Shown here: piece by piece, positions 5,020-30,913 of the stretch | Layout of the letters: the number at the start of each line of letters is the position of its first letter | How positions within the stretch are numbered: position 1 is the stretch's first letter | From: Synechocystis sp. PCC 6803 substr. PCC-P | Lineage (GTDB): Bacteria; Cyanobacteriota; Cyanobacteriia; Cyanobacteriales; Microcystaceae | Direction: 5' to 3' | Length of the DNA: 32,000 bases | NCBI RefSeq assembly: GCF_000284455.1 | Contig: NC_017039.1 | Span: forward strand, 780,001-812,000 | Notes under the pieces: model-generated | What the model saw: only the letters and a program-made list of their open reading frames with translations | Databases searched by the model: none | What the model was told of the DNA's origin: nothing | Program-made: the position numbers and the translations under genes

Positions 5020-5020
5020 A

Positions 5021-10973: not shown

Positions 10974-11972
10974 GTGAAAATTCCCGGTAGTGTCATAACC
11001 CTTCTCATCGGCGTTGTGATCACAGTTGTTAGTTTATGGTACGGACAGAATCATGGTCTGATGCCCGTGGCTGCCTCCGCCGATGCAGAAAAGGTGGATG
11101 GCATTTTTAACTACATGATGACCATTGCCACAGGATTATTCCTCTTGGTAGAAGGAGTTTTGGTTTATTGCCTGATCCGCTTTCGCCGACGCAAAGACGA
11201 CCAAACCGATGGTCCACCCATAGAAGGTAACGTGCCCCTGGAAATTCTCTGGACTGCCATCCCTACGGTGATTGTTTTTACCTTGGCGGTGTATAGCTTT
11301 GAGGTGTACAACAACCTGGGCGGTTTGGATCCAACCATTTCTAGGGATAATGCCGGTCAGCAGATGGCCCATAACCACATGGGACATATGGGGAGCATGG
11401 GGAATATGGTGGCTATGGCTGGGGACGGAGATGTTGCCCTGGGCATTGGTTTAGATAGCGAAGAACAAGGAGTCAACCCCCTGATGGTAGATGTGAAGGG
11501 AATTCAGTATGCGTGGATTTTCACCTATCCCGAAACGGGGATTATTTCCGGCGAACTGCACGCCCCCATCGATCGCCCGGTGCAATTGAACATGGAAGCC
11601 GGGGATGTGATCCATGCCTTTTGGATTCCCCAATTACGGTTAAAGCAGGATGTGATTCCGGGGCGGGGCAGTACCTTGGTGTTTAATGCCAGCACCCCTG
11701 GGCAGTATCCGGTTATCTGTGCTGAGTTGTGTGGTGCTTACCATGGGGGCATGAAATCGGTCTTCTACGCCCATACCCCCGAAGAGTATGACGACTGGGT
11801 GGCGGCCAATGCTCCGGCTCCAACGGAATCCATGGCAATGACATTGCCCAAAGCGACCACCGCCATGACCCCCAACGAATATTTAGCCCCCTATGCGAAA
11901 GAAATGGGAGTACAAACTGAAGCTTTAGCCCAATTAAAAGATCAAACCTCTCCGGTTGGAGATCTACTCTGA
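10974..11972 (+). CDS. ctaC: Cytochrome c oxidase subunit II
   Basis: GTG start with GAGG 6 nt upstream. It has two N-terminal TM helices and the CuA site HAFWIP...CAELCGAYHGGM. It is followed directly by ctaD and ctaE. Confidence 0.93.
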   Translation: MKIPGSVITLLIGVVITVVSLWYGQNHGLMPVAASADAEKVDGIFNYMMTIATGLFLLVEGVLVYCLIRFRRRKDDQTDGPPIEGNVPLEILWTAIPTVIVFTLAVYSFEVYNNLGGLDPTISRDNAGQQMAHNHMGHMGSMGNMVAMAGDGDVALGIGLDSEEQGVNPLMVDVKGIQYAWIFTYPETGIISGELHAPIDRPVQLNMEAGDVIHAFWIPQLRLKQDVIPGRGSTLVFNASTPGQYPVICAELCGAYHGGMKSVFYAHTPEEYDDWVAANAPAPTESMAMTLPKATTAMTPNEYLAPYAKEMGVQTEALAQLKDQTSPVGDLL

Positions 11973-12060
11973 TTTGGTTGGAACACCTAACCTTGAGTCG
12001 TACTGGTCAGTTTTGCTTTAAAACCCTGTAAATTTTGACAAATTTGGTAGAAAACTTTTT

Positions 12061-13716
12061 ATGACTATTGCCGCTGAGAATCTAACGGCTAATCATCCCC
12101 GCCGCAAATGGACGGATTACTTTACCTTTTGCGTTGACCATAAGGTGATTGGCATCCAATATCTAGTTACGTCTTTCCTCTTCTTTTTCATTGGCGGTTC
12201 CTTTGCGGAAGCCATGCGGACGGAATTAGCCACTCCATCCCCGGATTTTGTCCAGCCGGAAATGTATAACCAACTGATGACCCTCCACGGCACGATTATG
12301 ATCTTTCTGTGGATTGTGCCGGCAGGGGCGGCCTTTGCCAACTATCTCATTCCCCTCATGGTGGGCACAGAGGATATGGCTTTTCCTCGCCTCAATGCCG
12401 TTGCTTTTTGGCTAACTCCACCGGGGGGCATTTTGCTTATTTCCAGCTTTTTTGTGGGGGCACCCCAGGCAGGCTGGACTTCCTATCCACCTTTGAGTTT
12501 GCTGAGTGGTAAATGGGGAGAAGAACTGTGGATTTTGAGTTTGCTGTTGGTGGGGACCTCCTCCATTCTGGGGGCGATTAATTTTGTTACCACCATTTTG
12601 AAGATGCGTATCAAGGACATGGATTTGCACAGTATGCCCCTGTTTTGCTGGGCTATGCTGGCCACCTCTTCTTTGATTTTGCTTTCCACCCCAGTGTTAG
12701 CATCCGCTCTGATTCTGCTTTCCTTTGACCTGATTGCCGGCACTAGCTTCTTTAACCCAGTGGGGGGGGGAGACCCGGTGGTTTACCAGCATTTATTCTG
12801 GTTTTACTCCCATCCGGCGGTGTACATCATGATTTTGCCCTTTTTTGGCGTAATCTCTGAGGTCATTCCTGTCCACGCCCGCAAACCCATCTTTGGCTAC
12901 CGGGCGATCGCCTATTCGAGTTTGGCCATTAGCTTTCTGGGCTTGATTGTCTGGGCCCACCATATGTTCACCAGCGGTACCCCCGGTTGGTTACGGATGT
13001 TCTTCATGGCTACCACCATGTTGATTGCTGTGCCCACGGGGATCAAAATTTTCAGTTGGTGCGGTACCCTCTGGGGCGGCAAAATTCAACTCAACTCCGC
13101 CATGTTGTTTGCCTTTGGTTTCCTATCTAGCTTCATGATTGGTGGGCTAACCGGGGTAATGGTGGCGTCTGTTCCGTTCGATATCCATGTCCACGACACC
13201 TATTTTGTGGTGGGACACTTCCATTACGTGCTCTTTGGTGGCAGCGCCTTTGCTTTATTTTCTGGGGTTTACCACTGGTTCCCGAAAATGACTGGCCGCA
13301 TGGTCAATGAGCCCCTGGGTCGTCTTCACTTCATCCTCACTTTTATCGGCATGAATTTAACCTTTATGCCCATGCATGAGTTGGGGTTAATGGGAATGAA
13401 CCGCCGCATTGCCCTCTACGACGTTGAATTTCAACCCCTAAACGTTTTGAGCACCATTGGAGCCTACGTTTTAGCCGCTTCCACCATTCCTTTTGTCATC
13501 AACGTTTTTTGGAGTTTGTTTAAGGGGGAAAAGGCGGCCCGGAATCCTTGGCGAGCTCTGACCCTAGAATGGCAAACGGCCTCTCCTCCTATTATTGAAA
13601 ACTTTGAAGAAGAACCAGTGCTCTGGTGTGGTCCCTACGATTTTGGTATTGACACGGAGTTAATGGATGACGAAGAAACAGTCCAAACCCTAATTGCCGA
13701 TGCGGCAGGAAGTTAG
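12061..13716 (+). CDS. ctaD: Cytochrome c oxidase subunit I
   Basis: 551 aa and polytopic. It has heme-copper oxidase motifs: GGGDPVVYQHLFWFYSHPAVY, WAHHMFT and GHFHYVLFGG. Confidence 0.97.
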   Translation: MTIAAENLTANHPRRKWTDYFTFCVDHKVIGIQYLVTSFLFFFIGGSFAEAMRTELATPSPDFVQPEMYNQLMTLHGTIMIFLWIVPAGAAFANYLIPLMVGTEDMAFPRLNAVAFWLTPPGGILLISSFFVGAPQAGWTSYPPLSLLSGKWGEELWILSLLLVGTSSILGAINFVTTILKMRIKDMDLHSMPLFCWAMLATSSLILLSTPVLASALILLSFDLIAGTSFFNPVGGGDPVVYQHLFWFYSHPAVYIMILPFFGVISEVIPVHARKPIFGYRAIAYSSLAISFLGLIVWAHHMFTSGTPGWLRMFFMATTMLIAVPTGIKIFSWCGTLWGGKIQLNSAMLFAFGFLSSFMIGGLTGVMVASVPFDIHVHDTYFVVGHFHYVLFGGSAFALFSGVYHWFPKMTGRMVNEPLGRLHFILTFIGMNLTFMPMHELGLMGMNRRIALYDVEFQPLNVLSTIGAYVLAASTIPFVINVFWSLFKGEKAARNPWRALTLEWQTASPPIIENFEEEPVLWCGPYDFGIDTELMDDEETVQTLIADAAGS

Positions 13717-13850
13717 TTTCTTTAACTTTCTGTGCTTAGGGGGATGGCTAGCTTAATGACCTAATGACCTCCCCCATGGGCCCGACCGCCAGAGATTTTT
13801 GGCAAAATTCTAGAAATTCAGCAACGATCCAGCGATTAATTGTCAGTCCT

Positions 13851-14465
13851 ATGCAAACCACTGCCCTTAGCTCCGATTTAAACAGTACCTATACCCCAGG
13901 GGAAGCCCACGGCCACCATGGTCACCCCGATCTACGAATGTTTGGAGTTGTCCTGTTCCTGGTGGCGGAAAGTGCCATTTTTTTGGGTCTGTTCACCGCC
14001 TATCTGATTTATCGCAGTGTGATGCCTGCCTGGCCTCCTGAGGGCACACCAGAGTTAGAATTACTCCTGCCAGGGGTCAACAGTATTATTCTGATTTCCA
14101 GTAGCTTTGTCATGCACAAAGGTCAAGCCGCCATTCGTAATAATGACAATGCCGGGTTGCAAAAATGGTTTGGCATTACTGCCGCCATGGGTATTATCTT
14201 TTTAGCTGGTCAGATGTATGAATATTTCCACCTGGAAATGGGGCTAACTACCAATTTATTTGCCAGTTGCTTTTATGTGCTCACGGGCTTTCACGGGCTC
14301 CATGTTACTTTTGGATTGCTATTAATCCTTTCTGTGCTCTGGCGATCACGGCAACCGGGCCATTACTCCCGCACATCCCATTTCGGGGTAGAAGCGGCGG
14401 AATTGTACTGGCATTTCGTCGATGTGGTCTGGATTGTTTTGTTTATTTTGGTTTACTTACTGTGA
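13851..14465 (+). CDS. ctaE: Cytochrome c oxidase subunit III
   Basis: The ORF is open from 13764. Subunit III homologues begin near MQTTALSS...HGHHGHPDLRMFG, so I place the start at ATG 13851. HWHFVDVVWI is the conserved subunit III C-terminal motif. Confidence 0.88.
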   Translation: MQTTALSSDLNSTYTPGEAHGHHGHPDLRMFGVVLFLVAESAIFLGLFTAYLIYRSVMPAWPPEGTPELELLLPGVNSIILISSSFVMHKGQAAIRNNDNAGLQKWFGITAAMGIIFLAGQMYEYFHLEMGLTTNLFASCFYVLTGFHGLHVTFGLLLILSVLWRSRQPGHYSRTSHFGVEAAELYWHFVDVVWIVLFILVYLL

Positions 14466-16186: not shown

Positions 16187-16987
16187 TTAGCTAGCGATCG
16201 CCTCCGTTTCTTCCGTTTCCCTACCCCTCAATAGGCTAGAAATTTCATCGCTATATTTAAAAAACTCTGGTTCCCGCTTAATTTTATAGGTCCGATTTTT
16301 CGGAGTTTCTTCATCCCCCGGCAGATTAATGGTTAATTCCCGCTGAATAGTGCCGGGACGGGAACTCAACACATAAACCCGTTGGGCCAGAAATACGGCT
16401 TCCTCCACGTCATGGGTAATCATCAAAATGCTACATTGCAGTCTTTGCCAAATATCAATCAGATATTCATGCATCCTTTCCTTGGTTTGAATATCTAAAG
16501 CGCCAAAGGGTTCATCCATTAATAAGACTTTTGGATGGCAAGCCAAAGACCTGGCGATCGCCACCCGTTGTTTCATGCCACCGGACAATTCCCTGGGATA
16601 AGCTTCAGAAAAATTAATTAGCCCCACCACGTCCAGATAATAACTAGCGGTGTCAAAGCGTTCCTTTTGGGAGCAACCTTGGAGTTTGAGACCAAATTCT
16701 ACATTTTGCCGCACAGTCATCCAGGGAAAAAGACTGTAATGTTGGAAAACCATACCCCGGTCAGCCCCTGGTCCCGTCACCCTTTGTCCATCCACATTAA
16801 TGGTGCCGGAAGTCGGAGTATCCAAACCAGCAATTAACCTCAAAAGGGTCGATTTTCCGGAACCAGAAGCCCCCACTGCACACACAAATTCCCCGGTTTC
16901 AATGTGCATATTGATGTTTTTTAGAGCTACCACTGACCCCCGTTTGCCGACAAACACCCGATTTAAATCAGTTATTTCTAGATGCAT
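16187..16987 (-). CDS. ABC transporter ATP-binding protein (NitT/TauT family); last gene of the riboswitch-led operon
   Basis: Walker A GASGSGKST, ABC signature LSGGMKQRVAIARSL, Walker B LLMDEPFGALD and H-loop ITHD. Confidence 0.92.
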   Translation of the reverse strand: MHLEITDLNRVFVGKRGSVVALKNINMHIETGEFVCAVGASGSGKSTLLRLIAGLDTPTSGTINVDGQRVTGPGADRGMVFQHYSLFPWMTVRQNVEFGLKLQGCSQKERFDTASYYLDVVGLINFSEAYPRELSGGMKQRVAIARSLACHPKVLLMDEPFGALDIQTKERMHEYLIDIWQRLQCSILMITHDVEEAVFLAQRVYVLSSRPGTIQRELTINLPGDEETPKNRTYKIKREPEFFKYSDEISSLLRGRETEETEAIAS

Positions 16988-17043
16988 GGTTTTTATTATT
17001 TACAATTAATTTAATAGTTTTGTAATGATGGAAAAAATCTGAC

Positions 17044-17886
17044 TTATTGTTCCAAAGACCATTTACAAGTGAATCTGAGGATGAGGCGAAATGATAAATC
17101 CAACGCAAAGCCAATTAATCCCAAAACAATTAAGCAAGCAAAAATCTCATCGGTTTTCAAAAATTTCTGAGCTAGCAAAATACGCTTCCCTAAGCCATTG
17201 TCTGCCGCCACCAATTCCGCCACCACTACCAAGTTCCAAGCCGCCGCCATGTTGATCCGAAAGGCGTCAAGAATATTGGGAATAATGTAGGGGGTGATGA
17301 CCTTAAACAAAATCTGTTTCCTTAATCCCCCTAGGGTATAGGTAACTTCAATTAATTCCTTGGGAATAAATTTGACCGCATCCATAATCATCAGGGTATT
17401 AAAAAATATTGTCCCAATGAAAATTAAGGCAATTTTTGAAGCCTCATCAATGCCGAGGTAAATAATTAATAATGGAATAAAGGCTGGGGCTGGCATGTAA
17501 CGCACCACACCAATAATTGGCTCTGTTAGGCTACGTATGCTGGGAAATGTCCCCATTAAAATCCCCAAGGGAATAGCCACCAATCCCCCTAAAAAAAATC
17601 CCCCCACTACTCGCCCAAAACTAGTCAGGGAATCCTGGATTAGAAATCCATCCTTAAATAGCTTTATCAAGGCTTGAATTACCGACTGGGGCGAAGGCAG
17701 AAAAACATCACTCACAGTGGGTAAAGATGAAAGCAGTGCCCACAATACCAAAGGAATAATGATCGATAAGGACATTAACGACCATTTGAGAGATTCGGGT
17801 ATTTCCCCACCAATGCGCCAAAAAACTGTGGGCTTGAGGGATTCTTTAGAGGGATAATCTGATAATTTATCCTGGGCAATAGTCAT
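17044..17886 (-). CDS. ABC transporter permease (NitT/TauT family)
   Basis: 280 aa and polytopic. The EAA-like loop region DEASKIALIFIGTIFFN is typical of binding-protein-dependent permeases. It lies between the binding-protein and ATPase genes. Confidence 0.88.
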   Translation of the reverse strand: MTIAQDKLSDYPSKESLKPTVFWRIGGEIPESLKWSLMSLSIIIPLVLWALLSSLPTVSDVFLPSPQSVIQALIKLFKDGFLIQDSLTSFGRVVGGFFLGGLVAIPLGILMGTFPSIRSLTEPIIGVVRYMPAPAFIPLLIIYLGIDEASKIALIFIGTIFFNTLMIMDAVKFIPKELIEVTYTLGGLRKQILFKVITPYIIPNILDAFRINMAAAWNLVVVAELVAADNGLGKRILLAQKFLKTDEIFACLIVLGLIGFALDLSFRLILRFTCKWSLEQ

Positions 17887-17988
17887 AGTATTAGGGAAAT
17901 TGATTGGCTAACAGAGTGAGCAAATTGTCACAAAGAAAAATCAAAATCCCTCCGATTACTGGTTGGAGATGAGAACTCGAAGTAAAAA

Positions 17989-19017
17989 CTAAGCCTTACC
18001 AGCTAAGGTTTTCACAAACTGAGCATCGAGAATCTTGGTCAGGTCAGGGGCTTTTTCAATAAAGCCGACTTTAGTCATAAAATCTGCCATTTTTTGGGCA
18101 GCAAAGGGCATGTGCACCATACTATCTCCAGGGCTAAAAGCTTCTAAATTTTCCTCTAGAGTTAAAAAGCGAGTGCCATCCTTAAATAGTTGTAGTTCTT
18201 CTTGGCTCACCCCCGCCCGTTTAGCCATAATTTCATCGGATTTTTCGGGATTTTCCTCCATGAATTTACGAATATCAAACCAGGTGTTAACTAATGCTTG
18301 TACTTGCTCTGGTTTTTCCTGAATTAATTTTTCTGTCACGACTAAAAGGTCAGGAATAGCTCCGGGAAATTCGGCGGAAGTAACTAACTCTTTAGAGCCT
18401 TCCCGTTTCAGAGCTGTTAACCAAAATGGAGGAAACGCCCCTACTGCGTCCACTTGTCCCGCTGCAAAGGCCGCCGCCGCCGCCCCTGTTTCCAAAGGCT
18501 TGATTACCACATCATCCCGGCTCATGCCTTCCCTTTCCAGAGCTAAACTGAGCAGAAAATCATCCACTACCCCTTCTTCGATCGCCACGGTTTTACCCTT
18601 GAGATCCTGAACAGTATTGATGTCGGCGGTAACAATAATTTTGTCATTGCCAGCGGAGTTATCATTCACTAGTACTGCCACTTCTCCGTTAACTGCCTCC
18701 CCAGCAAAGGAAATGGTGTCGTTTAAAGTTTGACTATTGCCATCCAACTGCCCGGCGGCTAAGGCTTGCATGGATTCCAGATAACCGTCAAACCACTTCA
18801 TTTCCACATTGACACCGTTTTTGGCAAATAGGCCTTCTTCCTCGGCGATCGCCCAGGGCCACCAACCCGCCCAGTTGCTATAACCAATGACAATGGGAGG
18901 TCCTTCGGGAACCGGAGCAGAGGTTTGGGATTGCTCTGGGGTTTGGGCACAACTAACTGTTAACAGTAAGGTGCTACAAAAAATCAGAATTAAGGAAATT
19001 AAACTACGTCTGGGCAT
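17989..19017 (-). CDS. ABC transporter periplasmic substrate-binding lipoprotein (NMT1/TauA/NrtA-like); probable guanidine-binding component
   Basis: I take ATG 19017 as the start because GGAG lies 9 nt upstream; the ORF track extends to 19047. The signal peptide ends in a lipobox-like LLLTVSC. The fold family is suggested by GYSNWAGWWPW and the overall NitT/TauT context. Confidence 0.82.
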   Translation of the reverse strand: MPRRSLISLILIFCSTLLLTVSCAQTPEQSQTSAPVPEGPPIVIGYSNWAGWWPWAIAEEEGLFAKNGVNVEMKWFDGYLESMQALAAGQLDGNSQTLNDTISFAGEAVNGEVAVLVNDNSAGNDKIIVTADINTVQDLKGKTVAIEEGVVDDFLLSLALEREGMSRDDVVIKPLETGAAAAAFAAGQVDAVGAFPPFWLTALKREGSKELVTSAEFPGAIPDLLVVTEKLIQEKPEQVQALVNTWFDIRKFMEENPEKSDEIMAKRAGVSQEELQLFKDGTRFLTLEENLEAFSPGDSMVHMPFAAQKMADFMTKVGFIEKAPDLTKILDAQFVKTLAGKA

Positions 19018-19100
19018 CGATTTTTCTCCGCTAGTTGTTAATAACATATAAAACTAAATTGAAAAGTTTTACTGTGTTGATTTTGACTTTTTAAAAATTT

Positions 19101-19790
19101 CTAGATAGAAACTATCATCGGTACTTTAACTTGACTCTTAACCCAACTAAACCAAGTATCCAAACCCTCTCCGGTTTTAGCCGATACTGGAATAATGGTC
19201 ACATGGGGGTTCATGGAACGGACGTTAGCGGCTAATTTTTCTAGATCAATATCTAAATGGGGAATGAGATCAGTTTTAGTAATTAGTAAACAATCTGCTT
19301 CCTGGAACATAACTGGATATTTTAGGGGTTTGTCTTCCCCTTCGGTGACACTGAGTAGTGCGACTTTACTATGTTCCCCCACTTCAAATTCCGCTGGGCA
19401 AACTAGATTGCCCACATTTTCCACCAGCACCAAATCAAATTCTTTAGGATTGTAATCTTCCTGTAAACGATGAATTCCCCCTGCCACCATTTTGGCATCT
19501 AAATGACAGGAACGACCGGTGTTAATGGCGATTACAGGGCTACCATATTGCCGCAGGCGATCGGCGTCTAATTCCGTGGTCATATCCCCTTCGATAACCG
19601 CCATTTTTAACTCACTTTGGAGGGCGGCCAAGGTTTTTTCGAGCAGAACAGTTTTACCGGCTCCGGGGCTACTCATTAGGTTTAAACAGGTAATACCCCA
19701 TTCATCAAAATGTGCTCGATTATGGTCGGCACCTGCCTGGTTTGCGTGGAGCAAATTTAGACCGATCGCCGTGTCAATGGATTGGTGCAT
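19101..19790 (-). CDS. hypB: HypB-like nickel-metallochaperone GTPase (second HypB paralogue, not in a hydrogenase cluster)
   Basis: G1 motif SSPGAGKT, plus [26 protein letters not shown] and ITKTDL (NKxD-like). There is no His-rich N-terminal tract. Confidence 0.88.
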
Positions 19791-19850: not shown

Positions 19851-20213
19851 TTAAGCCGGAGTGCACTGATGATGTTCAATGCGGTCAATTTTTAGCTCCC
19901 GCCCGGAACGGATGTCATCCATCGGAGATCGGCAGGTGGGACAGGAATATTGCAAACCAATTTCGGGACTATATTCCGTTTGGCAAGTATGGCAGTAGGC
20001 AACCAAAGGCACATCTTTGATTACCAATTCCGCCCCATTTAAAAAGGTTTGCTTGGTTTGCACTTCAAAAGCAAATTGCAAACTCACTGGTTCCACACAG
20101 GTAAACTGACCCACTAGGAGGTGAATCTTGGTGATTTGGGGTTTTTCAACTTGTTGATCAAACCAATCCTGAATAGTCATAATCAGGGCTTTGGTCATGT
20201 CTGTTTCATGCAT
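19851..20213 (-). CDS. hypA: HypA-like nickel-insertion zinc-finger protein
   Basis: The start is taken at MHETDMTKAL, the canonical HypA MHE N-terminus (Ni site); the ORF is open to 20228. The zinc site is CHTCQ...CPTCRS. Confidence 0.85.
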   Translation of the reverse strand: MHETDMTKALIMTIQDWFDQQVEKPQITKIHLLVGQFTCVEPVSLQFAFEVQTKQTFLNGAELVIKDVPLVAYCHTCQTEYSPEIGLQYSCPTCRSPMDDIRSGRELKIDRIEHHQCTPA

Positions 20214-20288
20214 TTTTACCTCTCCCAAAGGCGATCGCCGATTATTTCAGAGCCATCAATTTGGCAATAATTAGTCAAGTTAAAGTTA

Positions 20289-21461
20289 CTATTGCCAGGG
20301 CTCATCCACTGCCATGTTCGCTTCAGCATGGATATAGGCCGGTTTTTCCGTGCGGGGTAATTGGCCAGAAACCACTAAATGGGCCATGGTGTCGCAAATT
20401 ACCCTGGTGGCCATCAACGAAGTCATGTCGCTGATGTCGTAGGGAGGGGAAACTTCCACCACTTCCATGCCGCAAACGTTAGTTTCCCGAATAATGCGTT
20501 TAAGTAAATACAGAGCTTCTCGGGGTAGTAAACCACCGGGTTCTGGCCAACCGGTGCCGGGGACAAAACCTGCATCAATGCAGTCAATGTCAAAACTAAT
20601 CCAAACGCAATCGGTGCCATCGGTGGCCCGGGCAATGGCAAAGTCCGCCGCCGCATCCAAACTCATTTCGGTAATATCAGTGACGGTCAAAATGTTGGTG
20701 GCCCGTTCCCGACAAACTTTGACCCCCTGGCGGGGTACTTGCCAACCACCAATGCCTAATTGCACTAGGTTTTTAGCTGGAGCGTTGGCCATGTTGGTGG
20801 CGTGGAACCAGGGACAAGTGTGCATCCGTTCGTCTAAGTCCGTTTCCTGGGTGTCCACATGGCGATCGAAATGGATAATGCCGACTTTTTTATCCCCCAA
20901 ATGACGACAGATGCCCCGCACCGTAGGAAAACCAATGGAATGATCACCCCCCAGAATTATCGGAAACGCTCCGGAACTGAAAATGTGGGCAATACCTTTG
21001 GAAATTTGGTCAAAGGATTTCTCATTGTTGGCGGGAATGGTGAAAATATCCCCCACGTCACAGAGACTAATTTGCTCCCGTAAATCCACCCCCATTTCAA
21101 AGTTGTAGGGAGTGTACAAAGCAGAAATACGACGAATCCCCTGGGGGCCAAAACGGGTACCTGGTCGATAGGTGGTGCCAGAATCATGGGGCACTCCGAC
21201 GATCGCCACATCATATTTCCCGACTTCCCGCACATCTTCCAGATATGGAGCCTTCATGAAGGTGTTAATGCCCGCATAGTGGGGCAATTCTCCCCGGGAA
21301 AAGGTGGGGATGGAGCGGTCTTTAATGCTGGCGGCGGCTTCTAAACCATAGGTTAGCCCTTGGTCAACCTCCTGCTGCCAACCGGTCAGGGGTAGCCGAG
21401 TTTCTTTGATTAAGGCTTCTTCAGCTTCAGAAGGGGGACGAAACGGGGTGGCATCGCTCAT
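20289..21461 (-). CDS. gdmH: Arginase/agmatinase-family ureohydrolase; in this riboswitch and HypAB context a Ni-dependent guanidine hydrolase (usually annotated agmatinase/speB)
   Basis: 390 aa with ureohydrolase metal-binding motifs GGDHSIGFP, HFDRHVDT and SFDIDCIDAGFVPGTG. It is the first ORF after a guanidine-I riboswitch and is followed by hypA- and hypB-like genes. I recall the Synechocystis orthologue (sll1077) being shown to hydrolyse free guanidine. Confidence 0.85.
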   Translation of the reverse strand: MSDATPFRPPSEAEEALIKETRLPLTGWQQEVDQGLTYGLEAAASIKDRSIPTFSRGELPHYAGINTFMKAPYLEDVREVGKYDVAIVGVPHDSGTTYRPGTRFGPQGIRRISALYTPYNFEMGVDLREQISLCDVGDIFTIPANNEKSFDQISKGIAHIFSSGAFPIILGGDHSIGFPTVRGICRHLGDKKVGIIHFDRHVDTQETDLDERMHTCPWFHATNMANAPAKNLVQLGIGGWQVPRQGVKVCRERATNILTVTDITEMSLDAAADFAIARATDGTDCVWISFDIDCIDAGFVPGTGWPEPGGLLPREALYLLKRIIRETNVCGMEVVEVSPPYDISDMTSLMATRVICDTMAHLVVSGQLPRTEKPAYIHAEANMAVDEPWQ

Positions 21462-21476
21462 AGGTAGTTACTAGCT

Positions 21477-21544
21477 AAACAACAAAATCTGCCCAGGAGT
21501 TATTAATGACAACACCTAAGCACTGGTCATTAAAGTCTCCCGGG
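21477..21544 (-). terminator. Intrinsic terminator forming the riboswitch expression platform
   Basis: Minus-strand sequence: CCCGGGAGacttTAATGACcagtgcttaggtgttGTCATTAataaCTCCTGGGcagAUUUUGUUGUUU. An outer 8-bp stem (one G.U) and an inner 7-bp stem are followed by a U-rich tract. The 5' arm CCCGGGAG (21537-21544) is also the conserved 3' end of the aptamer, so the two folds are mutually exclusive. Confidence 0.7.
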
Positions 21545-21650
21545 CTTTTGTCCCGCCGTGTAGCTAGTGGCAAAAATCTTTACAAAGCCTAGCCTGTTTC
21601 TCTCGGACCAGCCATTCCCCACATCACCAGGAATCGGAACCCTAGAAACA
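21535..21650 (-). promoter_or_regulatory. Guanidine-I riboswitch aptamer (ykkC-yxkD class, subtype 1)
   Basis: Minus-strand sequence: UCUAGGGUUCCGauuccuggugauguggggaauggcuGGUCCGAGAGaaacaggcuaggcuuuguaaagauuuuugccacuagcuACACGGCGGGAcAAAAGCCCGGGAGAc. All blocks I remember as invariant in ykkC RNAs are present in the right order and spacing: CUAGGGUUCCG, GGUCCGAGAG and ACACGGCGGGA.AAAAGCCCGGGAGA. Confidence 0.88.
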
Positions 21651-21897
21651 ATATCCCCTACCCTAGCTAGGGATGATTAAGTTAACTGTGTTCTGTGCTA
21701 CTTTTTATCGGCGATCGCCAAACTAAAGTTTAAAACCTGACATCAATTAGCTTTTTTTCCCTATCCAGGGATTGAGCATAGCTTTGCGATATCCTGAGTA
21801 TGCACATGGGAAAAGGTCACAGGTCTCGCACCATTGGTGTGATTACTAATTGATCTAACTATTCAGGAACGCAACTCAATCAACAATTGCCCAGCCA

Positions 21898-22407
21898 ATG
21901 CAACAAGCGGCCATCCCAGCCAATGAACAGCAGCGCTTAGCCCATCTACAGAATCTTAAAATTCTTGATACGCCAAGCGATGAAAAGTTCAACCGCATTA
22001 CTAGGCTATTATGTCGGGTGCTGGATATGCCCGTAGCTGCCATTTCTTTGGTTGATGAAAATCGTCAATGGTTTAAATCCATTCGGGGCTTAGACTTAAC
22101 CGAAACTCCCCGCTGTGTCTCCTTCTGCGCCCATACAATTCTGGAGGACCGCACCCTAGTTATTTCCGATACCCTATCTGACCTCCGTTTTGCCGACAAT
22201 CCCCTTGTCCTCGAGGCCCCCCACGTCCGATTTTATGCTGGTCACCCCCTGAAAATACTCGATAATATCCATGTGGGCACTCTCTGTGTTTATGACACTA
22301 AGCCCAGGGAAATATCCGACGACGATGTTCAGTTTTTAGAAGACCTTGCAATCACCGTGGCTAATGAGCTAAAGGCTCACATGTTCAAGAGATTTTTTAC
22401 GGTTTAG
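21898..22407 (+). CDS. Stand-alone GAF-domain protein
   Basis: 169 aa. The whole length aligns with the GAF domain of the next gene (EQQRLA.L..L.ILDTP.E..F.RITR..C..L..P.AAIS.VDE.RQWFKS..GL...ETPR...FCAH.I...........D.RFADNPLV...P..RFYAG.PL.....I.VGTLC). Confidence 0.85.
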   Translation: MQQAAIPANEQQRLAHLQNLKILDTPSDEKFNRITRLLCRVLDMPVAAISLVDENRQWFKSIRGLDLTETPRCVSFCAHTILEDRTLVISDTLSDLRFADNPLVLEAPHVRFYAGHPLKILDNIHVGTLCVYDTKPREISDDDVQFLEDLAITVANELKAHMFKRFFTV

Positions 22408-22461: not shown

Positions 22462-23493
22462 ATGGAAGCTAAATTACCGCAAAATGAGGAGCAACGCCTG
22501 GCAGTTTTGAGGCAACTCAATATTTTGGATACTCCCATTGAAGAAAGATTTGAGCGTATTACCCGTATGGTCTGCCGGTCCCTCAAAGTGCCCATTGCCG
22601 CCATATCAATAGTTGATGAATCACGCCAGTGGTTTAAATCTATTCAAGGGTTAAATGCTTCCGAAACCCCCCGTGAAATTGCCTTTTGCGCCCACGCCAT
22701 CCTCAGGGATGAATTACTGTTGGTCGAGGATGCTACCCAGGATGAACGCTTTGCTGACAATCCCTTGGTAACCGACGAGCCTTTCATCCGATTTTATGCC
22801 GGTTATCCCCTTAATTTGGGTCAAGATATCCATGTGGGAACCCTCTGCGCCATTGATCGGGTGCCCCGGGAATTGTCGGCGGAAGAACAGGAAATTCTCT
22901 ACGACCTCTCCAAAATGGTGGAGTCTGAACTGGCGGCGATCGCCCTATCGGAGGCTCAAATACAGCTAATTCAAGAACTGGATGAACTTGAAAGGGTGGC
23001 CATGGTCGATAGCTTAACAAGACTCTGGAACCGTTTGGGCATTGAAACTCTTCTAAAACGGGAATGGGAGTACGCTACCCGCAAAAATTCTCCTATTTCC
23101 ATTGTCATGATTGATTTTGACAACTTTAAACAAATCAACGATCAACACGGTCATTTAGTCGGAGACGAGGTTCTGCAGGGTAGTGCCCGTTTAATCATTT
23201 CAGTTCTTCGTTCCTACGATATTTTGGGCAGATGGGGAGGAGATGAGTTCATGCTTATTCTGCCTGGTTCTGGTCGGGAGCAGACCGCTGTGCTCCTAGA
23301 AAGAATTCAAGCCACCATTGCCCAAAACCCAGTACCCACATCTGCGGGACCCATGGCAATCAGCTTGAGTATGGGGGGAGTCAGTGTATTTACCAACCAG
23401 GGTGAAGCACTCCAGTATTGGGTAGAACAGGCAGATAATCAGTTGATGAAAGTCAAACGTCTTGGTAAGGGCAATTTTCAACTGGCAGAATAA
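22462..23493 (+). CDS. GAF-GGDEF diguanylate cyclase (I recall the Synechocystis orthologue slr1143 as an active cyclase that interacts with Cph2)
   Basis: N-terminal GAF domain, a coiled linker, then a GGDEF domain with an intact active site GRWGGDEFMLIL. An RxxD I-site (RSYD) lies 5 residues upstream. Confidence 0.9.
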   Translation: MEAKLPQNEEQRLAVLRQLNILDTPIEERFERITRMVCRSLKVPIAAISIVDESRQWFKSIQGLNASETPREIAFCAHAILRDELLLVEDATQDERFADNPLVTDEPFIRFYAGYPLNLGQDIHVGTLCAIDRVPRELSAEEQEILYDLSKMVESELAAIALSEAQIQLIQELDELERVAMVDSLTRLWNRLGIETLLKREWEYATRKNSPISIVMIDFDNFKQINDQHGHLVGDEVLQGSARLIISVLRSYDILGRWGGDEFMLILPGSGREQTAVLLERIQATIAQNPVPTSAGPMAISLSMGGVSVFTNQGEALQYWVEQADNQLMKVKRLGKGNFQLAE

Positions 23494-23720: not shown

Positions 23721-26639
23721 TCATAGGAATTTAAATTTCCGTAACTCCTCCGCTCCTAACAATAAAGGAGGACAGGAAAGAAGCAGAGCAAACTGCCAAT
23801 TTGTCAGTGGAGTGGTAGTGAAAATAGCTTGGAGAGAAGGAAAATACATTAAAGACAAAATTAACATCCATTCCGTGGCAATGCCAATCCAAATTAAGGG
23901 ATTACTAAACCAGCCTAACTTGAAGGCAGAAGTGCGTTCTGAGCGGCAAGCAAAAACATTTCCATCTTGACAGGCCACAATCACTGCTAGGGTCATGGTG
24001 GTGGCCTGGGCATAGATAGCCATTAAAATTGGATCTGCTGTGTGATGGAGAATACTTGTCGTAACGGCTTGTAACTCAGCTAATCCGTAACCGTAACTTC
24101 CCCAAACTAAGAAAAATCCGGCCATGCCCAAACCCGCTTCAATTATGCCTAGAAAGCAGTAAGCTCTTAACAATAAAGCACGATCTAATAGGGCTTGATT
24201 TTTTTGGCGGGGAGGCAATTTCATCGTTCCGACTTCAGCTTTTTCTATACCCAAGGCTAAGGCCGGAACCATGTCCGTTCCTAAGTCAATGGCTAGAATT
24301 TGCATAATTAGTAATGCGGGGGGAATGTTGAGGAAAATCATTGCTAAAAATGGTACTAACTCCGCTACATTGGAAGCCAAAATGTAAGTTATAAACTTGC
24401 GGATGTTTTGATAAACTGTGCGGCCTTCTTCCACTGCGCTGACAATGGTGGCAAAATTATCGTCGGTAAGCACAATATCCGCCGCTTCCCTGGCCACATC
24501 GGTCCCGTTTAAGCCCATGGCAATGCCAATGTTGGCCGCCCGCAATGCCGGAGCATCATTGACCCCATCCCCCGTTACCGCCACAATCTGCCCCAAGCCC
24601 TGATAAGCTTGCACTAAGCGTAGTTTTTGTTCCGGGGCCATGCGGGCAAAGATAAGACCAGAACGATATTTTAAAATCTGTCGCAGTTGGGCATCGGACA
24701 AATGGGTTAGCCCATCCCCAGTCACTACCCGTACTTTTTCCTTGACTAGACCAATACTTCTGGCGATCGCCTCTGCGGTGAGGCCATAGTCCCCAGTGAC
24801 CATGGTGATAGCAATACCGGCCCCATGACAACGGGCGATCGCCTCAGGCACTTCTGGCCGAGGAGGATCAAACATGGCCACTAAACCCACGAAAATTAAT
24901 TGTTGCTCTAGGGTTTGGGGTGATGCTTCTAGTAAATTTTCATGGTCGGCCCGAACCGCCAAGCCCAATACTCGAAAACCTTCCTTGGCGTAGTGATCAT
25001 TGGCCTCCGTAATTATTTGGCGATCGCCGGAGGTTAGTTCGGTCACCTGTCCGGCTTTTAAAATGGATTGACAACAGCGCAACACCTCCAGGGGAGCACC
25101 TTTGGTAAAAGCCAAATTTTCCCATGGCAAATCATTTCTGCCGGAAGTAAGGAAAGGCAAATTTTCCCCAGCCTTTTGCCAATCCAAAACCACCGTCATC
25201 ATCCGTCGTCGGGAATCAAAGGGCACTTCCCTGCGCCGGGGATAATCTTGCTGGAGTTGTTCTAAATCAAAATCTGCCTTCAGAGCGGCCACCAATAATG
25301 CCGCTTCCGTGGGGTCTCCCATTTCTTGCCAACGGCTGGAACCGGAAGGATGAATCAAATGGGCATTGGAACAAAGAGCGGAACCAATGAGCAGTAATTT
25401 AACCTGTTGCTTTTCATCTTTACCTGGGGGAAAGGTAATTTTGCCCGTGCTGGGATCATAGCCTTCCCCTGGCACCGTTAAGGTTTGGCCATGGTTCGTT
25501 GCCGGAATCCAAAGAGAACGAACGGTCATTTCATTTTTAGTTAAAGTTCCCGTTTTATCTGTACAAATAACTGTAGTGGCACTGAGGGTTTCCACCGCCG
25601 ATAATCGCCGCACCAAAGCATTACGTTTGGCCATCCGTTGTACCCCCATGGCCAGGGATAAAGTCACCGTGGGCAACAAACCTTCTGGCACTAGGGCAAC
25701 AATAATGCCAATGGCAAAAATGAAACTTTCCTTTAATTCCAGATGGGTCACCAGGGACGCCAACACAAACACCAAAACTCCCATGCCAACGGCAATCAGG
25801 GTAATTACCCGCACAATCTGGCTAATTTGGACTTCCAGGGTGCTGGGTTCCCGCTTAACATTGGTGGTGAGATGGGCCATATGGCCAAATTCCGTTTCCG
25901 CTCCGGTGGCATAGACAACCCCTACTCCCCGCCCCGTGGCAATGGTGGAACCGGCTAGGACTAAATTGCGAATTTCCTGGGCTTTAACCGGGTCTTGCAG
26001 TGCCCTTTCCCCCCCATGGACTAAAACTTGACCGCCCCGTTTAGGCACAACTTCTCGAATTTGGGCCGATTCGGCAAAACGAGCTACGGGTAAGGATTCC
26101 CCCGTCATCACCGACACATCAACGTATAAACTATCCGCTGAAACTAAGCGCAAATCCGCCGATACCCGATCGCCTTCTTCCAATTGCACCACATCCCCCC
26201 GCACTAATTCCCTAGCCAGAACAGACTGTAAAGTGCCGTCCCGATAAACTTTTACCTGGGCTGGGAGAACTTTCTTGAGGGTCGCCAGGGCTTTTTCGGC
26301 CCGAAATTCCTGACTAAAACTAAATAAACCATTAATCCAAATCACCGCCCAAATGGCCCAGCCCAACTGCGGCGTACCGGAAACAAAAGCCAGAATGCCC
26401 GCCACCCAGAGCAATAACGCCATGAAATGGGTCATCTGATCAACAAAACGCAACCATAAAGGTCGTTGTACCGGTTCCGCCAGCTCGTTCAGTCCATAGC
26501 GTTGCAATCTTCGGGCCGCTTCCTCGCCGGATAAACCTTGGGGACTCGTCTCCAACCTTTCGTAAACCGCTTCTGGGGCAATAGACCAAACCGTGGTGGA
26601 GGAATTCATCGGTGCAACAAAGATGGTTTTCCATCCCAT
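23721..26639 (-). CDS. P-type (type II) cation-transporting ATPase
   Basis: Motifs DKTGTLT, TGES, MVTGD and TGDGVNDAPAL. The M4 motif VPEGLLPTVTLSLAMG is closest to the Na,K/H,K-ATPase form PEGLLATVT. The start could be ATG 26639 or 26609. Confidence 0.92.
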   Translation of the reverse strand: MGWKTIFVAPMNSSTTVWSIAPEAVYERLETSPQGLSGEEAARRLQRYGLNELAEPVQRPLWLRFVDQMTHFMALLLWVAGILAFVSGTPQLGWAIWAVIWINGLFSFSQEFRAEKALATLKKVLPAQVKVYRDGTLQSVLARELVRGDVVQLEEGDRVSADLRLVSADSLYVDVSVMTGESLPVARFAESAQIREVVPKRGGQVLVHGGERALQDPVKAQEIRNLVLAGSTIATGRGVGVVYATGAETEFGHMAHLTTNVKREPSTLEVQISQIVRVITLIAVGMGVLVFVLASLVTHLELKESFIFAIGIIVALVPEGLLPTVTLSLAMGVQRMAKRNALVRRLSAVETLSATTVICTDKTGTLTKNEMTVRSLWIPATNHGQTLTVPGEGYDPSTGKITFPPGKDEKQQVKLLLIGSALCSNAHLIHPSGSSRWQEMGDPTEAALLVAALKADFDLEQLQQDYPRRREVPFDSRRRMMTVVLDWQKAGENLPFLTSGRNDLPWENLAFTKGAPLEVLRCCQSILKAGQVTELTSGDRQIITEANDHYAKEGFRVLGLAVRADHENLLEASPQTLEQQLIFVGLVAMFDPPRPEVPEAIARCHGAGIAITMVTGDYGLTAEAIARSIGLVKEKVRVVTGDGLTHLSDAQLRQILKYRSGLIFARMAPEQKLRLVQAYQGLGQIVAVTGDGVNDAPALRAANIGIAMGLNGTDVAREAADIVLTDDNFATIVSAVEEGRTVYQNIRKFITYILASNVAELVPFLAMIFLNIPPALLIMQILAIDLGTDMVPALALGIEKAEVGTMKLPPRQKNQALLDRALLLRAYCFLGIIEAGLGMAGFFLVWGSYGYGLAELQAVTTSILHHTADPILMAIYAQATTMTLAVIVACQDGNVFACRSERTSAFKLGWFSNPLIWIGIATEWMLILSLMYFPSLQAIFTTTPLTNWQFALLLSCPPLLLGAEELRKFKFL

Positions 26640-26706
26640 TAGGTATGATTCCCAATCTTACAAAGATTCAAACTTAACTGTTGTCGCCTAAAAAGTTGTC
26701 TCTAAT

Positions 26707-26943
26707 TTATGGCAATGGCCCAATGCGGGATAGGAGCGATCGCCTTTGTAAATGAAGACTGATCAATTCGTCTGCGCCCAAGCTACCGATAATCAGGGCG
26801 GCAAACAATGATCCCATTCTATTGGCCGGGGTGGATAACACCAGAATGGCGATCGCCAGGGCGAGGAAAAATAGACCAAAAAAAGATCTGATTACCAACT
26901 CCTGTTTTGATCTGGTAACTTGTTGGCCGGCGTTTTTTTTCAT
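26707..26943 (-). CDS. Hypothetical small two-helix membrane protein
   Basis: 78-aa ORF with two hydrophobic segments (FFGLFFLALAIAILVLS and LFAALIIGSLG). It has an ATG start with GGGGGA about 9 nt upstream. It sits between leuS and the ATPase on the same strand. Confidence 0.5.
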   Translation of the reverse strand: MKKNAGQQVTRSKQELVIRSFFGLFFLALAIAILVLSTPANRMGSLFAALIIGSLGADELISLHLQRRSLLSRIGPLP

Positions 26944-26970
26944 TGGCGCAATTCCCCCGTAAAATCAGCC

Positions 26971-29589
26971 CTAGGTGATAACAAAATTGACTAATTTACC
27001 CGGTACGACAATTACCTTTTTAATCGTTTTCCCTTCCAAATAACGTTGGGCTAAATCAGAATTACGGGCCAATTCTTCCAACTGGGTTTTATCCGCACTG
27101 GCGGGAACAGTGATAGTTCCCCGAGTTTTGCCTAGCACTTGAATGACCAACGTAATTTCATCTAATACTAGGGCAGTGGGATCCACCTGCAACCAAGCCT
27201 GTTGGTGAATGGAGTCAGTACGACCCAAACGATGCCACAATTCCTCCGTCAAGTGGGGCGCAAAGGGAGCAAGGAGTAACAGCAGGGTTTCAATGCCTTC
27301 TTGGTAAACGGGAAAAGAAATCAAATCCGTCGCCGCAATTAGGGCATTACTGAGTTTCATCATTTCGGAAATAGCGGTGTTGAACTGGTAATCGTCGTTC
27401 AAATCCTCCGCCACTTCTTTGATTGCCCCATGGATAGCCCGCCGTAAATCTTTCTCCGCTTTAGTTAAAGGCTCGTTGGTCACTAAGGTTTCGGGGCGCA
27501 CCGCGAAGCGGATCCCTGCGGGATCGCCAATGTAATCGGTTACTAAGCGCCAAACCCGATTGAGAAAGCGGAATTGACCTTCCACGTCCGCATCGTCCCA
27601 TTCTAAATCCTTCTCTGGAGGGGCTTTGAAAAGGATAAACATCCGGGCGGTGTCGGCACCATATTTAGCCAACACTTCTTGGGGATCCACACCGTTAAAT
27701 TTGGATTTAGACATTTTTTCGTAGAAAACCTGTAGCGGTTCCCCACTGTCGGGGTCCTTTGGATCCTTGGGATCAATTACCTGTTGTCCCGTTTGCAAAT
27801 CCTTGGCCGGCACATATTTGCCCGTGGTGGGATTTTTGTAGGTAATACCCTGCACCATGCCCTGGGTTAACAATTTTTGGAACGGTTCTTTGACGGGAAT
27901 TAACTGGCGATCGGCCAAAACTTTGGTGAAAAAGCGGGAATAAAGCAAATGTAAAATGGCGTGTTCAATGCCCCCCACATACTGGTCTACCGGCAACCAG
28001 TGGGCAACTTTTTCCCCATCAAAGGGCAACTCAGTGTTTTGGGCATCGGCATAACGCAGAAAATACCAGGAAGAATCAATGAACGTATCCATGGTGTCCG
28101 TTTCCCGCCGGGCTGGTTTTCCACAACTGGGACAGGGCACGTTAATCCAATCCTCTAATTTCGCTAGGGGAGAAGGGCCACGACCGGAAAATTCCACATT
28201 ATCTGGCAACTCCACCGGCAAATCCTTGGTCGGTACGGGCACTGCTCCACAGTCATCGCAATGAATGATGGGAATGGGACAGCCCCAATATCGTTGTCGA
28301 GAAATCAACCAATCCCGCAGACGATATTGCACTTTGGCCCGACCATAATCATTATCTTCAGCGAATTTAATAATGGCCTGTTTTGCTTTGGGGGAAGCCA
28401 TACCGGTGAATTGAGCTGAATTAACCATCACCCCCGCTTCGGTATAGGCCACCGTCAAATTCACATCACTGTTATCGGCATCGTCGGGAATAATCACCAC
28501 TTGCATGGGCAAATTATTATCCTGGGCAAATTTGAAATCCCGTTGATCGTGGGCGGGAACCCCCATCACTGCGCCGGTGCCGTATTCGTATAGAACATAA
28601 TCGGCAATCAAAATGGGAATTTCTTCTCCGTTGAAGGGATTGATAGCAATGCCACCGGTTTTAACACCACGCTTGGGTTTATCCTCCGCTGTCCGTTCAA
28701 TTTCACTCTCTTTGGCCACCATGGCGACAAACTCATCCACTGTGCCCTGTTGTTCTGCTGTGGTAACCACCTTGGTTAAAGGATGTTCTGGGGCTAAAAC
28801 CACGTAGGTAACGCCGTAAACCGTGTCCGGGCGGGTGGTGAAAACAGCAATTTTTTCCTGACTATCCTTGATGGGAAATTCCAAATAAGCCCCCACGGAT
28901 TTGCCAATCCAATGGGACTGCATCAGTTTGACCCGTTCTGGCCAGCCCGTTAATTGCTCTAAATCATTCAGTAAAGCTTCGGCGTAGTCGGTGATTTTTA
29001 AGAACCATTGCCGCAATAATTTACGCTCCACCATGGCCCCCGATCGCCAGGAGCGGCCTTCACTATCGACCTGCTCATTGGCCAGAACTGTTTGATCAAT
29101 GGGGTCCCAATTAACGGTGGCTTCTTTTTGGTAGGCCAAACCAGCTTGGAAAAATTCCAAAAACAACCATTGGGTCCAACGGTAATAATCGGGGGCACAG
29201 GTGGCCACTTCCCGTTCCCAATCGATGGAAAGCCCCAACTGTTGCAACTGGGCTCGCATCTGGGCAATATTTTTTTCTGTCCACTGCTTGGGGGGAATAC
29301 CCCGCTCAATGGCTGCATTTTCCGCCGGTAAACCAAAGGCATCCCAACCCATAGGATGCAACACCTGGTAACCCTGCATCCGTTTTAACCGAGCAATGAC
29401 ATCGGTGATGGTGTAGTTGCGCACATGGCCCATGTGGAGGTTCCCGGAAGGATAGGGAAACATGGACAGGGCATAAAATTTAGGCAGATCAGAGGCGATC
29501 GGTGTTTTGTCCAACCCCCATTCAGCCCAGCGTTGTTGCCATTTTTGCTCGATTTCACCAGCGTTGTATGGGGATGCCACGACGACCAA
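26971..29589 (-). CDS. leuS: Leucyl-tRNA synthetase
   Basis: Class I signatures are [11 protein letters not shown] (HIGH) and KMSKSK (KMSKS). The CP1 editing region and the overall 872-aa length are typical of bacterial LeuS. The start is TTG 29589 or GTG 29580. Confidence 0.97.
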
Positions 29590-29704
29590 GATCTCCTAAG
29601 CCCAGTTGATTACAGGCTTGTTAGTATACCATTCTGACTTGGGCCCAAGGTTGTCTGTTAACCATCCTAGACCAGTGACCACGTAGAGATTGAAATTTGC
29701 GATT

Positions 29705-30913
29705 ATGGAAACTATTCAATTCAACATACGCCAGACAATTATTGTCGCAATTTTAGTGCTTTACATTGGTAAATATCTCACTAAAAAAATTAAGTTTTTG
29801 CAGAGTTTTAATATTCCCGATGCCGTTTCCGGTGGAGTGCTAGCTTCCCTGTTTTTTGGTCTCATCTACGGTATTTTTCGCACAGAAGTAGCTTTCAATT
29901 TTCCGATTAGGGATGCTTTTTTAATTATTTTCTTTACCTGCATTGGTCTATCTTCCAAGTTAAAAGTCCTACTCCAGGGCGGCAAACCCCTATTGATTCT
30001 TTTAGCAACAGCGGTGAGTTTTTTAGTAATTCAAAATTTTGTCGGGGTGGGTATGGCTTCCCTATTGGGGCAGGCGTTACCAGTGGGTTTACTCTCCGGG
30101 TCCATTTCCCTGAGTGGTGGCCATGGCACGGCGATCGCCTGGTCTCCGGTTTTTTATGATAACCACGGCATCCGTAATGCTTCGGAAATTGCCATAGCCT
30201 GTGCCACTTTTGGGCTGGTGTTCGGGGGCATTGTGGGAGGCCCCATCGCCAAATTTTTAATTATCCGCAATAAGTTAGAACCGGATTGTGACACTAAAGA
30301 TTTGACCATTGGCATCCGGCGAGATCAGGACAATGTGCAAATTGATTACAACACCATGCTCCACACCATTTTAGTCATTGGCGTTACCATCGGTCTTGGC
30401 TATGAAATTAACGATCTGGTTGCTAAGTTGGGGTTAATGTTGCCGGCCTTTGTTTCCTGTTTACTGGCGGGGATCGTGCTCACCAACACCATTCCCCTCG
30501 CTTTTAAAAAATTCCCTTGGCCGGCGGAAACCCCTTCCCTCGCCCTGATTTCCGACGTTAGTTTGGGACTATTCCTGGCCATTTCCCTGATGAGCCTGCA
30601 ACTCTGGACCTTAGCCGACATTGGCGGAGTGATCGCCCTGATCCTCCTGGTCCAATTCATGGCCACAGTGCTCTACAGCATTGCTGTTGTTTTTCCCCTC
30701 ATGGGGCGTGACTACAACGCAGCGGTAGTTTGCTCCGGTTATTCCGGTTTAACCCTGGGGGCCACCCCCACGGCGATCGCCAATATGACCGCAGTGACGG
30801 AAAAATTCGGCGCCGCTCCCCAGGCTTTCATCGTTGTACCCTTGGTGGGGGCCTTCTTCATCGACATTGCCAATGCCTTTGTGATCCAGCAATTTCTCAA
30901 TTTTCTTGGCTAG
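29705..30913 (+). CDS. gltS: Sodium/glutamate symporter
   Basis: Polytopic, about 400 aa. The GltS-family N-terminus (METIQFNIRQTIIVAILVLYIGKYL) parallels E. coli GltS, and SGGHGTA is a conserved GltS motif. I use ATG 29705 rather than the upstream TTG 29690. Confidence 0.88.
   Translation: METIQFNIRQTIIVAILVLYIGKYLTKKIKFLQSFNIPDAVSGGVLASLFFGLIYGIFRTEVAFNFPIRDAFLIIFFTCIGLSSKLKVLLQGGKPLLILLATAVSFLVIQNFVGVGMASLLGQALPVGLLSGSISLSGGHGTAIAWSPVFYDNHGIRNASEIAIACATFGLVFGGIVGGPIAKFLIIRNKLEPDCDTKDLTIGIRRDQDNVQIDYNTMLHTILVIGVTIGLGYEINDLVAKLGLMLPAFVSCLLAGIVLTNTIPLAFKKFPWPAETPSLALISDVSLGLFLAISLMSLQLWTLADIGGVIALILLVQFMATVLYSIAVVFPLMGRDYNAAVVCSGYSGLTLGATPTAIANMTAVTEKFGAAPQAFIVVPLVGAFFIDIANAFVIQQFLNFLG

Follow-up and report, generated by a model that had tools for sequence, protein, structure and literature searches.

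The window, as we call the whole stretch of 32,000 nucleotides analysed here, carries on its minus strand a gene formerly annotated as an agmatinase, preceded by a long leader and followed by genes with nickel chaperone and ABC transporter signatures. What controls this cluster, and how far does that control reach? A sequence-only reading of the DNA had proposed that the leader is a complete guanidine-I (ykkC) riboswitch with an overlapping terminator, that annotation had overlooked it, and that the genes below it form one guanidine-responsive operon. The riboswitch is real but already known. It was not overlooked: the element is in Rfam, was predicted and drawn upstream of sll1077 by Wang et al. 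2021 (PMC8390497) and received experimental validation in 2025 (PMC12704784). Our analysis adds comparative support for a conserved terminator platform, which the literature asserts only by analogy. The whole reading, a guanidine-I riboswitch in the gdmH 5' UTR that acts as an ON switch by means of an overlapping terminator behind an NtcA-activated promoter, is very probably correct. The features discussed below are collected in Table 1.

Table 1. Positions in the window of the regulatory elements and genes of the gdmH locus
Feature	Positions	Strand	Basis or remark
Putative NtcA box GTAGCACAGAACAC (GTA-N8-CAC)	21688-21701	-	Pattern scan
Guanidine-I riboswitch aptamer (RF00442)	21535-21656	-	cmscan and RNAalifold
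Aptamer P1	21649-21644 with 21601-21596	-	
Aptamer P2	21594-21589 with 21567-21562	-	
Aptamer P3	GGG 21554-21552 with CCC 21544-21542	-	
Conserved block CUAGGGUUCCG	21635-21645	-	Invariant in 33/33 aligned homologues
Conserved block GGUCCGAGAG (internal loop L1, docks onto P3)	21600-21609	-	
Conserved 3' block ACACGGCGGGACAAAAGCCCGGGAGA (P3 module, forms ligand pocket)	21536-21561	-	
Terminator hairpin, two-tier	21491-21545	-	Fold energy and conservation
U-rich tract UUUUGUUGUUU	21477-21487	-	Set off from the stem by AGA (21490-21488)
Third tier: U tract and UAGCUAGU	21470-21487, paired with 21568-21551	-	MFE fold of the whole leader
gdmH (sll1077), Ni2+-dependent guanidine hydrolase, formerly 'agmatinase SpeB2'	20289-21461	-	Identity to PDB 7ESR/7OI1
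ghaA (sll1078), HypA-like Ni metallochaperone	19851-20213	-	Likely start ATG 20213 (MHE...)
ghaB (sll1079), HypB-like GTPase for Ni insertion	19101-19790	-	TIGR00073 hypB, 328 bits; name from PMC12704784
gimABC, guanidine ABC importer	16187-19047	-	Function and unit TU794 from PMC12704784
gimA, SsuA-family binding protein	17989-19047	-	
gimB, permease	17044-17886	-	
gimC, ABC ATPase	16187-16987	-	

The gdmH leader contains a complete guanidine-I aptamer

The sequence-only reading had suggested a covariance-model search of the leader, and we ran cmscan with Rfam 15 over the whole window. Guanidine-I (RF00442) matched positions 21656-21535 of the minus strand with 84.8 bits, above the gathering score of 63. 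The match is full-length (model positions 1-107 of 107) with an E-value of 5.4e-14 for the 32 kb window, and no other Rfam family exceeded its gathering threshold anywhere in that window. In a permissive Rfam scan of 21300-21900 (E <= 10) we found no other ykkC-like or riboswitch family, including subtype 2, and the remaining matches were at the level of chance. Among the weak signals, a NiCo-like match at 21341-21427, within the gdmH coding sequence, was rejected as noise (14.2 bits against 64.5; E = 5.3), despite the use of nickel by GdmH.

The three conserved ykkC blocks that the earlier reading had placed on the minus strand are all present there (Table 1). Within the blocks CUAGGGUUCCG, CUGGUCCGAGAG and CACGG...GCCCGGGAGA, the window agrees with RF00442 at each highly conserved consensus position. 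The extent proposed earlier, 21477-21650, begins with P1 and closes with the U tract; the Rfam match reaches six unpaired nucleotides further at the 5' end, to 21656. An RNAalifold consensus of the window aptamer and 32 cyanobacterial homologues (n = 33) independently recovered P1, P1a, P1b, P2 and P3. Compensatory changes were observed in 14 of the 26 aptamer pairs, with the P3 and P1a pairs invariant; the three conserved blocks vary little or not at all across the 33 aligned aptamers. Short motifs do recur, and a general caution on that account is all that would favour a chance resemblance with no functional RNA behind it. Against this stand the E-value, the helices with compensatory changes and the recurrence of the aptamer in the same position at 66 of 80 gdmH loci (see below), which together make chance the least probable of the alternatives considered here, to the point that it can hardly be credited. 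The identity of the aptamer is settled.

The ligand class can be read from the P3 module. The module CACGGCGGGACAAAAGCCCGGGAGA corresponds in length, residue for residue, to C64-A88 of the Dickeya dadantii riboswitch (PMC5340920), in which G67 forms the pocket floor and separates subtype 1 from subtype 2. Residues of the subtype 1 pocket are present in the window: G21557 corresponds to D. dadantii G67, and G21540, G21539 and A21538 correspond to G84, G85 and A86. The GGUCCGAGAG block is identical to the consensus. Since subtype 2 RNAs carry a pyrimidine at the pocket-floor position and do not bind guanidine, the presence of G21557 assigns the window RNA, on sequence grounds, to ykkC subtype 1, that is, to guanidine-I.

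Members of subtype 2 (2a ppGpp, 2b PRPP, 2c and 2d) share the P1/P2/P3 architecture and many conserved positions with guanidine-I, so the same covariance model can score them, and a variant sensing ppGpp, PRPP or another ligand could resemble the element found here. They differ from it in the pocket-floor pyrimidine and in other pocket changes, in the lack of guanidine binding and in gene context. The window RNA has the subtype 1 residues (G21557 and GGGAG at 21541-21537), no subtype 2 family matched at E <= 10, and the genes that follow are for hydrolysing and importing guanidine rather than for the metabolism of purines or branched-chain amino acids. Guanidine binding has, moreover, been measured for the gdmH 5' UTR RNA (PMC12704784). 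A subtype 2 identity is therefore very improbable.

The element is the one characterized in Synechocystis sp. PCC 6803

The leader has been studied experimentally as the gdmH riboswitch of Synechocystis sp. PCC 6803 (PMC8390497, PMC12704784). Protein identity, gene order and residue numbering all agree with the published element, and we detect no difference. Protein identity likewise assigns the window to Synechocystis sp. PCC 6803 or a strain nearly identical to it. With nucleotide 1 set at 21656, G16 falls on 21641, A54 on 21603, A98 on 21559 and G100 on 21557, each on the published base, which ties the published construct to the window sequence. The published 'A57' falls on a G (21600) in the same numbering and is probably a range label.

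Itzenhauser et al. 2025 (PMC12704784) applied in-line probing to the gdmH 5' UTR and obtained a Kd for guanidine of ~58 uM, close to the 60 and 39 uM of other guanidine-I riboswitches. Guanidine-dependent modulation was seen at A54-A57 and A98-G100, and the G16C mutant RNA lost guanidine binding (PMC12704784). Placed behind a constitutive promoter, the 5' UTR gave a 4-5-fold induction of GFP by guanidine, which was likewise lost in the G16C mutant (PMC12704784). These experiments settle ligand binding and ON-switch behaviour. As for the level of control, the same authors state only that likeness to other guanidine-I riboswitches 'suggests' transcriptional ON-switching (PMC12704784). Because their GFP reporter carried the whole 5' UTR, including the native translation start, it cannot separate transcriptional from translational control (PMC12704784). 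The expression platform was left unanalysed in both published studies; the conservation of the terminator and the third tier described below are additions of the present work.

The 3' end of the aptamer doubles as the 5' arm of a terminator hairpin

The two-tier hairpin proposed by the sequence-only reading, with the last conserved block as its 5' arm, is borne out by folding. In the basal tier, GCCCGGGAG (21545-21537) pairs with CUCCUGGGC (21499-21491); the core of this tier is formed by CCCGGGAG (21544-21537) and CUCCUGGG (21499-21492), and the ninth pair is G21545-C21491. The upper tier joins 21533-21520 to 21515-21503 and includes the pairing of UUAAUGAC (21533-21526) with GUCAUUAA (21510-21503). 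By itself, the hairpin has a predicted folding energy of -26.4 kcal/mol, compared with -5.9 kcal/mol for the aptamer P3 alone. Its 5' arm is common to P3 and the 3' tail of the aptamer, so the terminator hairpin and the aptamer fold are mutually exclusive. The whole leader folds better than all 200 of 200 shuffled sequences (z = -3.6).

Downstream of the hairpin, the minus strand reads AUUUUGUUGUUU at 21488-21477. The earlier reading of a hairpin followed by a U tract is thus right as to the U-rich segment at 21487-21477 and needs amending as to its placement, since the tract does not abut the stem and a 3-nt AGA spacer (21490-21488) lies between the two. A simple terminator scan of the window returned nine sites, compared with 7.9 in shuffled sequence, and did not list the riboswitch hairpin. 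This miss is uninformative because the rules of the scan (a loop of 3-8 nt and an uninterrupted stem) exclude internal loops and a long span.

A U tract offset by 3 nt from the stem is suboptimal for an intrinsic terminator and should weaken termination. The terminator of the Synechocystis lineage may therefore be leaky, which would fit two reported properties of the leader, a basal GFP signal and a modest induction, 4-5-fold (PMC12704784).

The terminator platform is conserved among gdmH leaders

We surveyed 80 loci that encode GdmH relatives (86-98% identity in the best segment) in species-representative genomes, nearly all of them cyanobacterial. Using a profile built from the aptamers, we found that gdmH is immediately preceded by an aptamer in 66 of the 80 loci. 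Expression platforms were compared in 66 aptamer-bearing sequences, comprising 65 loci and the window. A 3' arm complementary to all nine nucleotides of GCCCGGGAG is present 39-59 nt downstream in 59 of these 66 sequences. This arm lies outside the aptamer and varies almost exclusively by C<->U exchange opposite G. The upper stem differs in sequence from lineage to lineage, yet the hairpin forms every time. All 66 platforms have a U-rich tract, defined as at least four U among the eight nucleotides after the stem, and in most of them it abuts the stem.

With G-U pairs allowed, a 9-nt complement would be expected by chance in <1% of such windows, by our own estimate of (6/16)^9 over ~55 positions. 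The retention of the 9-nt complement in 59/66 sequences, the U tract in 66/66 and the low chance expectation constitute strong evidence, of a comparative kind, that selection maintains a terminator competing with P3. The conservation of the terminator is thereby established. In other guanidine-I riboswitches, structural work has likewise identified the last P3 residues as the 5' arm of a terminator. We infer that transcription termination is the control step in the gdmH leader. Of the ligand-dependent antitermination ON switch proposed by the sequence-only reading, the ON behaviour is published and the terminator is conserved, and antitermination is the presumed part.

The spacer between stem and U tract is AGA or AAA in the Synechocystis lineage, and a 3-nt AGC or AGU is found in L003, L020 and L022; the sequences with a 3-nt spacer are those of the window, L001-L003, L020 and L022. 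The 14 of 80 gdmH loci that have no aptamer are L005, L009, L015, L019, L028, L031, L049, L054, L058, L060, L061, L062, L072 and L075, of which L005 is cut off upstream. An Rfam search of eleven of the aptamer-less loci, at gathering thresholds, detected no riboswitch, whatever the class. L009 and L028, both without an aptamer, have a permuted gene order in which ghaA-ghaB-gimABC lies upstream of gdmH.

A predicted third helical tier in the Synechocystis lineage

The minimum free energy (MFE) fold of the whole leader adds a third tier to the hairpin, in which the U tract and the nucleotides that follow it pair with 21568-21551. The latter segment comprises the 3' strand of P2 and the 5' side of P3. 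UAGCUAG (21476-21470), just past the U tract, mimics the 5' strand of P2. Formation of the third tier would extend the OFF-state helix to within 9 nt of the AUG, with the AUG itself outside the helix. The third-tier duplex has a predicted energy of -19.2 kcal/mol, against -7.2 kcal/mol for shuffled sequences (z = -4.7), and is therefore well beyond what composition would give. Tested on 66 platforms, this complementarity reached significance in just two, the window and S. salina (L001); it is absent from the other 64 (median z = -0.13). We accordingly rejected the third tier as a conserved feature.

The third tier raises the alternative that control is mainly or additionally translational. In that case, the ligand-free three-tier helix (21568-21470) would block ribosome loading, and guanidine would free the start by keeping P2 and P3 in place. 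The third-tier pairing in the MFE fold and its energy relative to shuffled sequence speak for such a role, as does the lack of a Shine-Dalgarno sequence between the U tract and the AUG. The published reporter, which retained the native translation start, is compatible with it, and the 3-nt spacer suggests that the terminator alone may leak. Several observations point the other way. The third tier is confined to the window and S. salina, whereas the hairpin and U tract are universal; SD-like GAGG or GGAG motifs in other loci lie downstream of the terminator and are unpaired with it; and the AUG is outside the helix. Translational control as the main or an additional mechanism thus seems unlikely to us, though less so than the other alternatives, and we favour termination by the hairpin and U tract.

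Alongside termination, the third tier may reinforce the OFF fold or hinder the translation of read-through transcripts. A more specific proposal is that this 'anti-P2' tier locks translation as well, at a second level, when transcripts get past a terminator weakened by its 3-nt spacer, which would make the gdmH leader a dual-level guanidine-I switch. We put both ideas forward tentatively and think them rather doubtful.

Promoter and proposed mechanism

Upstream of the aptamer there is a -10-like TAGGGT at 21665-21660, and the putative NtcA box lies 22 nt upstream of it. By our reading of the sequence, this arrangement implies a probable transcription start near 21654, adjoining the start of the Rfam match. 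A partial NtcA motif centred near -42, together with NtcA binding upstream of gdmH, has been reported (PMC12704784).

In the mechanism that we propose, transcription would begin near 21654 at the NtcA-activated promoter. In the absence of guanidine, GCCCGGGAG would pair with CUCCUGGGC, ~40 nt downstream, to form the hairpin 21545-21491, and RNA polymerase would stop in the U tract near 21484-21477, short of gdmH. Once guanidinium binds, GCCCGGGAG would be held by P3 and the docked 3' tail so that no terminator forms, and transcription would run on into gdmH-ghaA-ghaB, possibly with partial read-through into gimABC. Expression of gdmH would thus depend on both nitrogen limitation, through NtcA, and guanidine. 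A joint requirement for nitrogen limitation and guanidine has been described for gdmH (PMC12704784).

Genes and transcription units downstream of the riboswitch

The sequence-only reading had suspected that 'agmatinase' was a misnomer for the first gene and had called the next ones 'hyp'. The suspicion was justified: the protein is the guanidine hydrolase GdmH, and the 'hyp' genes encode the nickel chaperones GhaA and GhaB. The product of 20289-21461 matches PDB 7ESR/7OI1 at 100% identity along its entire 390 aa, and 7OI1 is Synechocystis GdmH (Sll1077) according to the literature. Its next-best match is the guanidinase of N. inopinata (9FEK, E = 1e-171), with true agmatinases scoring far lower. 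The protein belongs to the Pfam family Arginase, and it barely reaches the cutoff of the NCBIfam agmatinase equivalog (176.2 against 174.3). For ghaA, the mechanical ORF starts at TTG 20228, and a HypA-type N-terminus (MHE...) begins at ATG 20213. The true start is probably 20213, because of this N-terminus and of an independent gene call of 120 aa at L081.

The order gdmH, ghaA, ghaB, gimABC on one strand is that of the published sll1077-sll1082 cluster. According to PMC12704784, gdmH-ghaA-ghaB form TU795 behind an NtcA-bound promoter, and gimABC make up another unit, TU794, transcribed from an NtcA-dependent promoter of its own, as a reporter confirmed. In strains that produce guanidine, Wang et al. 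2021 (PMC8390497) found increased levels of every product of sll1077-sll1082. The single guanidine-responsive operon of the earlier reading is therefore overstated: the common response of the six products agrees with it, and the separate promoter of gimABC does not. A simple terminator scan found no terminator-like site in the gap between ghaB and gimA. Since this gap has no such site and all six products rise, some read-through into gimABC is possible.

The region upstream of gimA contains two partial NtcA-like motifs, GTATCGGCTAAAAC (19187-19174) and GTCAAAATCAACAC (19087-19074), and either could be the published P1080 site. If GTCAAAATCAACAC is that site, the transcription start would fall at or inside the called gimA start (19047), and the true gimA start may be further downstream.

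Divergent from gdmH, on the plus strand, are genes for a stand-alone GAF-domain protein (21898-22407, 169 aa) and a GAF-GGDEF diguanylate cyclase (22462-23493, 343 aa). The HIP1 palindrome GCGATCGC, a cyanobacterial genome signature, has 25 copies in the window, where 0.22 would be expected. The putative NtcA box and the divergent GAF gene have one copy between them (21711-21718), and another (20231-20238) lies in the gdmH-ghaA spacer. The flanking regions 194-14465 and 23721-30913 contain ordinary-looking genes for a DUF512/radical-SAM-like protein, a SpoIIE-GAF phosphatase, argininosuccinate lyase, a KAP-family NTPase and a radical SAM/DUF2344 protein. The same regions encode cytochrome oxidase subunits II and I, a P-type cation ATPase, leucyl-tRNA synthetase and a Na/glutamate symporter; no tRNA genes were found in them.

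Comparison with other guanidine riboswitches and implications

The gdmH riboswitch has the same aptamer fold, conserved nucleotides and pocket residues as the guanidine-I riboswitches of Nitrosomonas europaea, Bacillus subtilis ykkC, Dickeya dadantii and Sulfobacillus acidophilus. It differs from most guanidine-I riboswitches in what it controls. The others mostly govern Gdx/SugE exporters or a guanidine carboxylase pathway, whereas the gdmH element precedes a nickel-dependent hydrolase and its maturases and lies behind an NtcA promoter. Unlike other guanidine-I examples, that of the Synechocystis lineage has 3 nt between the stem and the U tract. Guanidine-II (mini-ykkC), guanidine-III (ykkC-III) and guanidine-IV respond to the same ligand and control overlapping sets of genes, but have unrelated folds, and guanidine-II acts on translation only. 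None of these three classes was detected by cmscan in the window or by the permissive scan of 21300-21900.

The recovery of this element indicates that a sequence reading made without tools can find a real riboswitch together with its expression platform. To a known system, our analysis makes modest additions: the conservation of the terminator, the correction of the operon, in which gimABC have their own promoter, and a lineage-specific extension of the OFF-state helix. Cyanobacterial work already employs the gdmH riboswitch as a guanidine-inducible tool, and its lineage-specific third tier may be of use in engineering tighter versions of the switch.
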